A DNA stretch of 64,000 nucleotides from Patescibacteria group bacterium (GTDB lineage Bacteria; Patescibacteriota; Patescibacteriia; UBA9934). The stretch covers positions 31,161 to 95,160 of the forward strand of contig JBAYHI010000004.1 of NCBI GenBank assembly GCA_041666205.1, given 5' to 3'. Made by a program: the position numbers and the translations under genes. The notes below the pieces were generated by a model. It saw only the letters and a list, made by a program, of their open reading frames with translations, was not told the DNA's origin and ran no database searches. Of the stretch, positions 5,529 through 8,063 are shown one piece after another (position 1 is the stretch's first letter; every line of letters begins with the position of its first letter).

Positions 5529-5547
5529 GAGAAGAAATGAGATGACG

Positions 5548-7599
5548 CTACGGGATCGTGAGTTCGCAGTCAAACCCCGTTCCGCCATTGCTCACCACGT
5601 CGGGCTCGACGAGAACACCGTCGATTTCGAATCGTCCGGAGTACTCGCCACTGCCATCCCAGTTGGCGCAGATCCACCACTGGTAGGCATCGTCCGTGTC
5701 GTCGCTATCGGTATCGGCTGGGGCGCCGGTCCACGGAACTTCGTCTTCGTTGTAGTCCTCCATTGCCACGTAGAACGTGCCGTTCACGGTCTTCACATCC
5801 CCGGAACTGCCGGCAATGGCCGTACACAGATCCGAGAACGTGCCAGAGGTGCTCACAGCCGGGGCCGTGTACCACCCCAGGTCGTACACCCAGAGTTCAC
5901 CGTCGATGGCGTTTGAGAGCGGATGCCCGAGCGATCCGCTACTGTCGATTTCCCAGCAGAGTTCGCGCGAGGCCGAGTAGCTCTCGTCCACGCAGTCGCT
6001 TCGTTCGTCGATGGCGTAGTCGCAGTCGTCGTCCACCCGATTTTCGCAGATCTCTCTGCCATCGGGGTGCACGGATGCGTCGCTGTCATTGCAGTCTTCC
6101 TCCCCTTCCGCAGGAACGAGGTAGATTGCGACGTCGTGACACGTTCCGCCGGGCTCGACCGTGAAGTAGTGACTCACGCCCGAACCGTATCCGTCGTGAT
6201 CGTGGTCGGCCCAGCAGTACACGATGTCGGTTTCGGGCTCGGCTTCGGTATCGGTGTCCGAATCCGTGTCGTCGGGCCCTTGTCCGGTGTCTTGCAGCTC
6301 TTCTTCAATGAAGTCCGGGAGCGCGTACCCGCACTGCGTCGCCTTGGACGCCGTGAGGCAGAACTCCCCTTGCGCGCAGCTTCCCACGCGCATTTGCACA
6401 TGCTGAATCGCCCCGGACGGCACTTCGATGATCTCGTGGCCCCAGTAGTCCTGCAGCAGGAACGTCTCCCAGTGATCGATCGGGAGCGCGACCCCGCCCG
6501 AGATGGTGTAGACCGCGCTGTTTCCGGTTTCTTTGAGGAGCGCGCCGTCGCGAAAGACAGCTGAGTCGATTGCATACGGGTAGCCGTTGAAGCCGCTCAT
6601 GTCCGCCGAGTGCATATTCATGACCCCGGCCGACGAGAGTCCCCAGGTTTGGAGGATCTCATCCTCGTAGGCCGAGGGCACAGCCATGCGAACTCGATTC
6701 GGGTCGTTGTACCGGCCCACGAAGAGCCAGGCCACGCCATCGTCATCGCGCAAGGCGATCACGGTGCCATCTGGCATGTCCGCGCCAGTGCTGTAGCAGT
6801 CGAACTCGCTTGGCGAGACGAGCGCCACATTGTCGCGGTAGGAGTAGTTCCAGTTCCAGAACGCGGTTTCGCTCGGGAACTTGCGCAGGGCACCTTCCTC
6901 CAGGAGGTAGAGATCGTTCTGGTCGGGCGTGGTGACGATCGTGCCGTTTGGGTGCCAGAGGTTCACGGCGAGCGTCGAGCGGTAGATGTGACCCCACGAG
7001 AGATCGCACCACAGGTCTTCGGCCATGACGTCGCCAGTCTCGCTCGGATCCGTGTCGCCTTCGAGCGCCAGGCGGAGTCCACGAATGGACGTACCCATGT
7101 CGGCGTCGAGCGACGCATCCCCCAGGTGCCGGCCCATGTGCACGTGATCGCCCGTGGAGGCCCCGGTGGTTCCTTCGAACCCCAGGATTTCCCCGGCCTC
7201 CACTTCCTCGCCGTTTTCGACGAGCACGGAAGAGAGGTGCGCGAGCACGATGTAGGTACCGTCCCCCAGATCGATGTTGAGATGCAGACCGAATCCGTGC
7301 GAGACGTCTTCGTCGTGCACGTACACGGTGCCGCCAACCGGCGCGAAGATGAGGTCGCTGCGGTTGTTCGGGGTGTCGAAGTCGATGTCGTAGGCCGTGG
7401 ACGTGTAGATATGCGAGTAGTTGCCACCCACGCCCTGCGTGCACCGCGTTTCGTAGCCGTCTTCGAACGGGAGGTCGACCGTGACGGTATCGCGCCCGCC
7501 AAAGTCGCCTTCCATGGGCGCGGTGACGGGAATCCGCCCGCAGGCCACGAGGAAGAAGAAGTAGAACCCCAGCAAGCAGTTGAAGATGCGTCGCAACAT
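5548..7599 (-). CDS. M23 family metallopeptidase lipoprotein with Cys/Asp-rich C-terminal extension (high-GC gene)
   Basis: ORF 5548..7686; likely start at internal Met giving signal peptide plus lipobox (FFLVAC). M23 motifs HIYTSTAYDID ... GDHVHMG. GC about 63% with G/C-rich third positions, unlike neighbours. Many spurious antisense ORFs typical of high-GC DNA. Confidence 0.8.
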   Translation of the reverse strand: MLRRIFNCLLGFYFFFLVACGRIPVTAPMEGDFGGRDTVTVDLPFEDGYETRCTQGVGGNYSHIYTSTAYDIDFDTPNNRSDLIFAPVGGTVYVHDEDVSHGFGLHLNIDLGDGTYIVLAHLSSVLVENGEEVEAGEILGFEGTTGASTGDHVHMGRHLGDASLDADMGTSIRGLRLALEGDTDPSETGDVMAEDLWCDLSWGHIYRSTLAVNLWHPNGTIVTTPDQNDLYLLEEGALRKFPSETAFWNWNYSYRDNVALVSPSEFDCYSTGADMPDGTVIALRDDDGVAWLFVGRYNDPNRVRMAVPSAYEDEILQTWGLSSAGVMNMHSADMSGFNGYPYAIDSAVFRDGALLKETGNSAVYTISGGVALPIDHWETFLLQDYWGHEIIEVPSGAIQHVQMRVGSCAQGEFCLTASKATQCGYALPDFIEEELQDTGQGPDDTDSDTDTEAEPETDIVYCWADHDHDGYGSGVSHYFTVEPGGTCHDVAIYLVPAEGEEDCNDSDASVHPDGREICENRVDDDCDYAIDERSDCVDESYSASRELCWEIDSSGSLGHPLSNAIDGELWVYDLGWYTAPAVSTSGTFSDLCTAIAGSSGDVKTVNGTFYVAMEDYNEDEVPWTGAPADTDSDDTDDAYQWWICANWDGSGEYSGRFEIDGVLVEPDVVSNGGTGFDCELTIP

Positions 7600-7633
7600 G
7601 ACGTCACCAATTTTTTGAAGGTCCGGGCATTCC

Positions 7634-7663
7634 CCCTTCGCTCTGTTGCACAGAGCTTCGGAG
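7634..7663. repeat. small hairpin repeat family (CCTCCTTCGCTCTGT-N-ACAGAGCTTCGGAGG), in the 5' leader of the M23 peptidase gene
   Basis: CCCTTCGCTCTGTTGCACAGAGCTTCGGAGG. Confidence 0.6.
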
Positions 7664-8063
7664 GACAGGTGAGATGGACTATCCACCTCCCATGAAAGAG
7701 GAATCGGGATCTTGAAATTTCATGGGAGAGCGGACAGGGGCCAAGAAAGCGACTCCCCAGACGCTTCCTTGGCCAAGGAAACTGTGAGCAAATCCAGAAC
7801 ATCGTTTGTCTGCAAAGCATGAACGCGTTTTGACCCTTGCAGCCGCTCGTCTGTTCCAGGTTCGCAACCTGTTTCTATATCCAACGTAACGCACGAAAAT
7901 GCGCCACGCAATGAAATTTGCGGGTATTTTTGTTGACGCCCATGAACACAAAAAAAGAATTCACCGATGTCTATTTGGTGAATGTTGTTGACGGGCCTCA
8001 ACAAAAGCTGGGGATGAGTCTTGACACCTTTTTTAGAATGTGTTACCTTTTTCTCGTTCCAGT

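Follow-up and report, generated by a model that had tools for sequence, protein, structure and literature searches.

A gene for a large M23 peptidase lipoprotein, located in a 64,000-nucleotide stretch of the genome of a Patescibacteria group bacterium (contig JBAYHI010000004.1; this whole stretch is called the window below, and positions are counted from its first letter), was analysed together with its relatives in other genomes. The gene forms a sharp GC-rich island beside a tRNA gene and a GIY-YIG cassette, and the first-pass annotation of the window took this context as consistent with horizontal acquisition. Our analysis leads to a different reading, which we hold with moderate confidence: the gene is probably a vertically inherited, Uhrbacteria-wide lipoprotein gene that opens a chromosomal type IV secretion system (T4SS) array of the monoderm-conjugation type, its high GC content is not the scar of a transfer, and its product would act as a wall hydrolase for secretion.

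The gene clearly differs in composition from the rest of the window, where the mean GC content is 0.494. In steps of 200 bp the GC content was 0.56-0.65 over positions 5501-7700, and it was 0.375-0.415 at 5101-5500 and 0.47-0.505 at 7701-8100 on the two sides. The GC content at third codon positions (GC3) was 0.80, as compared with 0.498 +/- 0.066 in the other 35 open reading frames (ORFs) of at least 150 amino acids (aa), which corresponds to z = 4.5, and values of 0.70-0.97 were obtained for every 30-codon block in all domains of the protein. The sharp jump of GC and GC3 relative to the neighbours, which had been noticed at first reading, could thus be confirmed. The dense overlapping antisense ORFs mentioned there were seen as well: many long ones (133-361 aa) overlap the M23 gene, and they were dropped as real genes, being an expected by-product of a GC3-rich coding sequence. 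A second GC island, overlooked at first reading, was found at about 9700-10700 (GC 0.59-0.72) and encodes a 259-aa lipoprotein with a GC3 of 0.84 (z = 5.1). The genes of GroEL, GroES and NusA have normal GC3. A chimeric or misassembled contig is unlikely, since a separate assembly (the Logan assembly of run SRR6484324, locus L001) was 100% identical to window positions 1336..11201, spanning both islands and their flanks, and dozens of other genomes show this arrangement, too.

For the comparison 80 related loci were retrieved from species-representative genomes, and each ortholog was compared with its own flanks. All of the 49 strong homologs belonged to Patescibacteria, the named ones being Candidatus Uhrbacteria, and the full-length homologs found were all from Patescibacteria as well. 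The excess of GC3 over the local median was +0.21 on average (median +0.22) and was larger than +0.1 in 80% of the cases (77 loci). When curated start codons were used, the GC3 of the ortholog was above the local GC3 in 38/38 loci (Wilcoxon p = 7e-12), and the relation of gene GC3 to flank GC3 in these loci had a slope of 1.17, an intercept of 0.13 and r = 0.73. The offset holds over the flank-GC range of 0.36-0.60, the richest genomes included (0.94 vs 0.71 in locus L021). The position of the gene is conserved, too. A polytopic membrane protein of about 950 aa adjoins M23 in 57 of the 73 comparable Uhrbacteria loci, on the same strand and usually 10-200 bp downstream, the gap being often just 10-60 bp. 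Pairwise identities of the M23 protein and of this neighbour were correlated (Pearson 0.75, Mantel 0/2000; this is a correlation of distances rather than a tree reconciliation), and the two proteins had the same nearest relative in 23 of 47 loci. The GC excess is a heritable property of the gene family and persists across the lineage.

The array headed by the M23 gene could be followed in the related loci. On the same strand, M23 and the membrane protein are followed by a protein of about 650 aa, a PrgI/VirB3 family protein (PF12666, E = 2e-9), a protein of about 235 aa, a VirB4-type ATPase (P-loop_TraG, E = 2e-25, plus AAA_10 and DUF87) and an exported protein of about 180 aa. Of the loci whose downstream DNA was long enough, 45 of 48 encoded PrgI and 18 of 20 the VirB4-like ATPase, and the GC3 offsets of these genes were near zero. 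The membrane protein may be regarded as VirB6-like by position and topology alone. The cluster leaves the window at its left edge, so the T4SS context could not be seen at first reading. The T4SS of Patescibacteria derives from, or is homologous to, the conjugation machinery of monoderms and is often found near KsgA, dnaA and the replication origin (PMC12102498). In the window the core genes comprise KsgA (20993..21796), a release factor, GroEL/ES, NusA, YidC, ArgRS, ValRS, UvrA, RNase J and the RNase P RNA. VirB1 is rarely encoded beside virB4 in Patescibacteria, and other hydrolases may take its role (PMC12102498); in S. epibionticum, peptidase and lysozyme genes adjoining virB4 are essential for epibiotic growth (cited in PMC12102498). 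A replication origin inside the window was considered and dropped, as the DnaA boxes were unclustered (16 matches vs 11.6 expected). A 540-aa secreted protein with a T4SS_pilin domain (PF18895, E = 2e-7; GC3 0.42) is encoded at 53636..55258 (-), about 50 kb from the cluster. The ~660-aa protein that runs off the window edge carries four near-identical VGADPGVRPLESTGKRTGLPVP copies in a low-complexity, Pro/Glu-rich region.

Positions of the M23 gene, the domains of its product and the surrounding features in the window
Feature	Position	Strand	Remarks
M23 lipoprotein coding sequence, 683 aa	5548..7599	-	stop TAG 5548-5550; GC 0.62; GC3 0.80
Signal peptide and lipobox (MLRR..FFFLVA-C20)	7540..7599	-	Cys20 at least 90% conserved across the family
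Extended M23 catalytic domain, aa ~35-195	7015..7497	-	H63, D73, D75, H106, H121, H152, H154 invariant
Conserved middle domain, aa ~196-431	6307..7014	-	~65-aa beta-hairpin/helix modules; EccB-extracellular-repeat-like; putative wall-binding module
Acidic Asp/Thr/Ser-rich, Cys-containing linker, aa ~432-543	5971..6306	-	low model confidence; architecture varies among homologs
MopE-type metal-binding motif, aa 502-532	6004-6096	-	Pfam match inside the linker
C-terminal beta-sandwich, aa ~544-683	5551..5970	-	W549, C644, G675 conserved in the family; weak C2-like resemblance
Intrinsic-terminator-like hairpin (GCGCCCCAAGGAAGC..CTTCCTTTGGGGCGC, then TTTTTT on the - strand)	5494..5529	-	~18 nt past the M23 stop; read from the sequence
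GIY-YIG cassette (gene 5078..5383, Pfam E = 3e-15)	5035..5490	-	between M23 and the membrane-protein gene
992-aa polytopic membrane protein	2014..4992	-	directly downstream of M23 in 57/73 loci; GC3 0.42 (normal)
Next cluster gene, ~660 aa, running off the window edge	1..2004	-	homologs in the same position in 54 loci
tRNA, 8-nt anticodon loop	8064..8142	+	ARAGORN; beside M23 in this genome only
Promoter TTGACA, 17 nt, TGcTACGGT (9639-9667) and GC-rich ~170-nt leader	9639..9842	+	5' hairpin, GGAGG ribosome-binding site
259-aa Asp/Thr-rich lipoprotein (MVRSFFVLIALLFVMFLGAG-C)	9843..10622	+	GC3 0.84; fast-evolving; divergent from M23
2972-aa secreted giant protein	11339..20257	-	GC3 0.47 (normal); syntenic beyond the small lipoprotein in 38-39 loci

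The minus-strand ORF 5548..7686 has 712 aa when counted from a GTG, while the ATG at 7599 gives the 683-aa product, the N-terminus of which is MLRRIFNCLLGFYFFFLVAC. The lipoprotein signal consists of the positive region MLRR, the hydrophobic core IFNCLLGFYFFF and the lipobox L-V-A-C at residues 17-20, and Cys20 was kept in at least 90% of 42 homologs. Peptidase_M23 (PF01551) matched at aa 72-160 (E = 2e-14, 53.9 bits vs the Pfam cut-off of 28.7), and M23 profile matches were obtained to 30 M23 sequences of the PDB; the description of the product as a large exported M23 lipoprotein is upheld. The searches of Pfam and NCBIfam gave M23-type matches only and none for the VirB1 (SLT), CHAP or NlpC-P60 hydrolase domains. 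The protein is rich in Asp (11.3% of the residues) and poor in Lys (0.6%). In the family alignments a fixed order was seen, namely lipobox signal peptide, M23 domain, middle domain, variable acidic linker and a conserved C-terminal domain of about 140 aa, and the linkers of the relatives contained MopE motifs, TSP3 repeats or neither.

The C-terminal ~380 aa had been described as a region with no obvious homolog, which could not be maintained. Residues ~196-431 are conserved and were modelled with a predicted local distance difference test score (pLDDT) above 90, and this part alone (aa 195-431) gave 342 matches in a representative-protein library with 1.84 billion entries. Conservation within the family extends to the last ~140 aa, and the low-complexity acidic linker accounts for just about 110 aa of the C-terminal part. 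The ~65-aa module of the middle domain was found in the same library in 4-11 copies in proteins of 1000-3800 aa. No Pfam match was obtained for the middle domain or the C-terminal domain at E up to 10. Structurally the middle domain resembled EccB (Foldseek match to 7nps_B1 with E = 5e-4 and probability 0.97; also 3x3m and 4kk7), with no match to the EccB Pfam profile at the sequence level, and among the models of BFVD only small uncharacterised actinophage proteins resembled the repeat module. EccB1 has repeats with weak similarity to PlyCB, a protein that binds the wall (PMC4769845).

The M23 fold is supported by the AlphaFold2 model (pLDDT >90 over aa 35-430), which was matched by Foldseek with a probability of 1.00 to many M23 structures, the template modelling (TM) scores normalised to the target being at most 0.74. 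The catalytic residues were invariant among the 42 family sequences: the HxH motif is present as H152-V-H154, and the mid-domain catalytic His is H121. The assignment of the peptidase to the LytM type could not be kept. There is no His four residues before D75, the aligned stretch being D71-I-D73-F-D75, i.e. DxxxD in place of HxxxD, and an invariant His (H63) sits 12 residues ahead of the invariant D75. This spacing may correspond to the M23A arrangement, in which, as in LasA, the His ligand precedes the Asp ligand by about a dozen residues, and the longest Foldseek alignments (184-198 columns) were those to the M23A structures LasA, beta-lytic protease and pseudoalterin. H63, D75 and H154 would be the zinc ligands, and H121 and H152 would be catalytic. 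The protein is probably a peptidoglycan hydrolase, as had already been proposed, and the sequence supports this as a prediction. By its architecture it can be considered a new variant within a known class of enzymes, and the T4SS-accessory role proposed for it is new and plausible.

The following way of action may be envisaged. The lipid-modified Cys20 would tether the protein on the outer face of the cell membrane, where the presumably active M23 zinc endopeptidase could cut the peptide cross-links of peptidoglycan. The EccB/PlyCB-like repeat domain would hold the enzyme on the wall, while reach and target specificity may come from the long linker, which is acidic and probably binds Ca2+, and from the beta-sandwich at the end of the protein. 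In this manner the enzyme would open the wall for the secretion machine, either the own wall of the cell or that of the attached host cell, a job that would be equivalent to the role of the VirB1, PrgK and CwlT hydrolases in other systems. It is the conserved placement of the gene at the head of the array that suggests wall opening for the T4SS, and a function as the wall hydrolase belonging to this system is the most likely one.

Two other explanations of the locus have to be considered here, one of its origin and one of its function. The origin supposed at first reading, a recent horizontal acquisition from a GC-rich donor with insertion beside the tRNA and the GIY-YIG element, would agree with the atypical composition and codon use (GC3 z = 4.5), with the tRNA and the GIY-YIG cassette, which do flank M23 in this genome as had been stated, and with the IS200-like transposase gene adjoining the second island. 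The MopE-type motif, which is common in GC-rich Myxococcota, can be entered on the same side. However, M23 was found at the same site with the same neighbours in 57/73 loci, thus its distribution is not patchy, and it co-diverges with its neighbour (r = 0.75). The GC3 excess was present in all 38 curated loci, and as the offset is kept in the genomes richest in GC, none of the lineages sampled could have been the donor. Neither the tRNA nor the GIY-YIG gene occurs in the other loci, both being local features, the full-length homologs were all from Patescibacteria, and the phage and plasmid collections contained generic M23-domain matches only, for which reason an origin from a mobile element was dropped. 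An ancient import is conceivable, but it would not explain the present composition, because synonymous sites are long since saturated at 35-50% protein identity. Taken together, recent acquisition appears extremely improbable. As regards function, the enzyme might be a stand-alone weapon lysing the walls of host or prey, or an autolysin for the cell's own division and remodelling, its adjacency to the T4SS being incidental. The intact catalytic site would suit such a role, the long linker and the variable C-terminal domain suggest reach and target recognition, the gene has its own terminator in this genome, and the M23 enzymes include both bacteriocins (lysostaphin, zoocin A) and autolysins (LytM, ShyA). 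Against it stand the adjacency and co-orientation with the T4SS array, which are kept across a class-level lineage with gaps of often 10-60 bp. The lipid anchor, moreover, retains the enzyme on the producer and is better suited to a contact-dependent or local role than to a diffusible toxin. We consider the stand-alone function unlikely, although it deserves to be taken seriously.

The small lipoprotein of the second island shares the compositional trait. An iterative profile search detected it in 15 loci, the match in L024 being marginal (E = 2e-4); in each case it is transcribed divergently from M23, 1-8 kb away. The GC3 excess was +0.23 to +0.54 in the 14 clear members and +0.08 in the marginal member of L024. 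BLAST gave a single homolog of the protein, and no Pfam match was found at E up to 10. The rise of GC begins at the promoter, ahead of the start codon, with 0.58-0.63 after it vs 0.28-0.39 before. Conserved consensus promoters, 5' hairpins and strong ribosome-binding sites were seen in front of the small-lipoprotein genes across the loci, and Rfam gave no RNA family in either leader. A DnaA-box-like 9-mer, TTATCCACA (with at most 1 mismatch, in either orientation), precedes the conserved TTGACA-N17-TAnnnT promoter by about 10-150 nt in some 11 of 14 loci (9599..9607 in the window, and loci L014, L007, L010, L045, L036, L028, L049, L027, L002 and L060), where chance would give, by rough estimate, about 2% per locus; DnaA control, or a replication origin close by, may be the reason. 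An IS200-like Y1 transposase gene (10736..11260, -) lies beside the small lipoprotein; the same was seen in the closest relative (L002, 7618..8238), and homologs were present in 4 loci.

The excess is confined to the genes with rather sharp edges. In M23 it starts about 120-180 nt before the ATG and stops at the stop codon: where 10-100 bp separate M23 from the next gene (21 loci), its final 100 codons had a GC3 of 0.70, and the value dropped to 0.48 in the initial 100 codons of that gene (p = 9e-5). Every synonymous codon family was moved towards G/C endings, and G/C-ending codons were equally frequent at conserved and variable residues (Mantel-Haenszel odds ratio 1.03). In several loci a Ser/Thr kinase, sometimes with an adjacent secreted protein, is encoded between the small lipoprotein and M23 and is also GC3-rich (+0.2 to +0.3; L063 1153..3878, L072 6082..8079, L057 4686..6761, L065 6102..8096, L081 5269..6213), hence the GC3-rich set is not limited to the two lipoprotein families. 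Since the excess is confined to genes, persistent in the lineage and common to the small lipoprotein, it points to an ongoing bias towards the fixation of G/C in these transcripts.

As to the cause of this bias, we tentatively propose, at somewhat less than an even chance, selection on the base composition of the transcripts, acting through messenger RNA (mRNA) stability or through the output of abundant surface proteins. Because of the sharp edges, the inclusion of the leader and the expression-boosting features of the small-lipoprotein genes, this cause is slightly favoured over GC-biased gene conversion, but the evidence does not decide between the two. In gene conversion the exposed, fast-evolving lipoprotein genes would be hot spots of recombination between strains, and G/C-favouring repair of heteroduplexes would lift the GC content at all of their weakly constrained sites. 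The equal enrichment at conserved and variable residues, the GC-rich non-coding leader, the divergence of the small lipoprotein, so fast that BLAST yields one homolog, and the variable linker and C-terminal architecture of M23 among relatives, which suggests modular exchange, would all be in line with it. At the fourfold sites of M23 the gain is nearly strand-symmetric (C from.21 to.33, G from.26 to.35), which suits gene conversion no less than selection. The step of GC3, however, is very sharp, and scattered tract ends should blur it; the co-divergence of M23 with its neighbour speaks against frequent replacement; and a strand-symmetric process does not predict the coding-strand C skew at the fourfold sites of the small lipoprotein (C.52 vs G.31). 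To our knowledge a GC3 difference of +0.2 to +0.4 is also far above the effects ascribed to gene conversion in bacteria, and on the whole gene conversion seems rather unlikely. Classical codon optimisation, by which the codons of two highly abundant lipoproteins would match the tRNA pool so that translation is fast or accurate, might be inferred from the preference for C-ending codons in the NNY families (TAC 97% vs 34%, TTC 88% vs 39%, ATC 83% vs 30%) and from the consensus promoter, 5' hairpin and strong Shine-Dalgarno sequence of the small lipoprotein. It is nevertheless very improbable: no added bias was found at conserved residues, the untranslated leader is GC-rich as well, G- and C-ending codons both increase in every family instead of one favoured codon each, and GroEL, GroES and NusA do not have such a bias. 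Transcription-linked deamination of cytosine was rejected, as it predicts a loss of C from the coding strand and the opposite was seen.

Besides the strand symmetry just mentioned, several observations weigh against a native, T4SS-linked gene with a heritable composition. The GC3 excess was near zero in six loci (L024, L034, L043, L056, L060 and L079), and the genes of the comparison loci were simple longest-ORF calls. In this genome the M23 gene is parted from the cluster by its own terminator-like hairpin and the inserted cassette. The 992-aa membrane protein and 13 orthologs had no detectable homology to VirB6, PrgH, Pfam families or PDB entries. The lipoprotein encoded at 35075..36049 has normal GC3, which shows that exported proteins do not share the trait in general; as the giant protein and the T4SS-pilin-domain protein are normal too, high GC3 as a property of all lipoproteins or exported proteins was dropped.

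A bolder generalisation, which we regard as improbable but worth stating, is that a heritable, gene-bounded process or selective regime holds the two surface lipoprotein genes flanking the T4SS 20-40 GC3 points above the genome throughout the class. It could take the form of gene-scale biased conversion at the host-contact interface, or of selection in favour of mRNAs that are rich in GC and withstand nucleases; in the most speculative version, the genes could be adapted to expression in a host of higher GC content once the T4SS has delivered DNA into it. If true, any of these would represent a hitherto undescribed type of compositional compartment within a minimal genome and would provide a sequence-only marker for genes of the epibiont-host interface. 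A literature search on GC heterogeneity in Uhrbacteria or Patescibacteria found nothing.

The elements directly beside M23 are peculiar to this genome. The GIY-YIG cassette is bounded by the inverted repeats TGTGTCATTGCGAGGAG and GACGAAGCAATCT, tandemly duplicated on one side, and was present in none of the 73 comparison loci, where the corresponding gap is 10-200 bp. The tRNA received a four-base anticodon call (tcct) from ARAGORN and has a 6-bp anticodon stem, an 8-nt loop (GGUCCUUA) and an encoded CCA end; Rfam scored it as a tRNA with 50.6 bits. A tRNA-Arg(CCU) whose loop is expanded is one possibility. A second four-base call (tatc) was obtained in one related locus, and L023 13949..14025 was noted alongside. 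The tRNA as an integration site was dropped, as no tRNA adjoins M23 in the other scanned loci. Elsewhere in the window, a tRNA-Ile with the anticodon UAU was called by ARAGORN at 48346..48422 (-). This anticodon is an uncommon bacterial means of reading AUA, and ATA makes up just 3% of the Ile codons here. A region of about 1.5 kb (~45850..47300) has a GC content of about 0.59 and no long ORF; its short ORFs had no Pfam match and it had no Rfam match. The remains of a GC-rich gene, or an RNA not yet described, might account for it.

A large part of bacterial diversity belongs to the Patescibacteria, which live attached to other cells. Their T4SS is among the few systems shown to be essential for the attached lifestyle in a cultivated representative (cited in PMC12102498), and a dedicated wall hydrolase is largely missing from the picture of this machinery (PMC12102498). 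The conserved M23 lipoprotein heading the Uhrbacteria array is a concrete candidate for the missing enzyme. The locus demonstrates, moreover, that a sharp GC island with a tRNA and a mobile cassette alongside can be native; if transfer were called from composition, the M23 gene would be mislabelled in most of the related genomes that were compared. A GC3 step of 0.2-0.4 over a few dozen bases, kept through very deep divergence, calls for an explanation and offers a bacterial test bed in which biased gene conversion and selection on synonymous GC may be told apart.

Compared with the known systems, the M23 gene shares with compositionally atypical genomic islands, and with GC3 heterogeneity inside genomes caused by gene conversion or expression-linked codon bias, a sharp GC/GC3 outlier and long antisense ORFs, but its anomaly is heritable in two gene families, lies in conserved synteny, is bounded by the transcripts and scales with the GC content of the genome; it fails the tests for islands as well as the test for translational selection. 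As a peptidase it has the fold, the HxH motif and the catalytic His in common with both M23A (LasA/staphylolysin, beta-lytic protease, pseudoalterin) and M23B enzymes (LytM, lysostaphin, zoocin A, ShyA, Csd). The His placed 12 residues ahead of the presumed Asp ligand is reminiscent of the M23A peptidases, whereas LytM-type enzymes have HxxxD where the present protein has DxxxD. Identity to all these enzymes is only 15-28%, and they are devoid of its ~490 extra residues. With EccB, a core component of the ESX/type VII secretion system, the middle domain shares an extracellular-repeat-like fold according to Foldseek; the TM-scores are low (0.12-0.15) and the root-mean-square deviation is high owing to the different arrangement of the modules, and wall binding is putative for both proteins. 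The VirB1 analogues PrgK (pCF10), TraG (pIP501), CwlT (ICEBs1) and TcpG are likewise encoded in a T4SS array, with a polytopic membrane protein, PrgI/VirB3 and a VirB4-type ATPase as shared neighbours, and the present enzyme is similarly predicted to be extracellular and wall-degrading. Those proteins carry lytic transglycosylase, CHAP or NlpC/P60 domains and are anchored by a transmembrane helix, whereas the present one has an M23 metallopeptidase and a lipobox, plus EccB-like repeats, an acidic linker and a beta-sandwich; its place among the T4SS wall hydrolases (VirB1/PrgK/CwlT) would be no more than that of a functional analogue. The peptidase and lysozyme genes of Ca. Southlakia epibionticum (Saccharimonadia) are also wall-hydrolase genes beside a Patescibacteria T4SS. 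They come from a different class and lie downstream of virB4, not at the head of the array, and the likeness drawn here is one of adjacency to the T4SS and of description.

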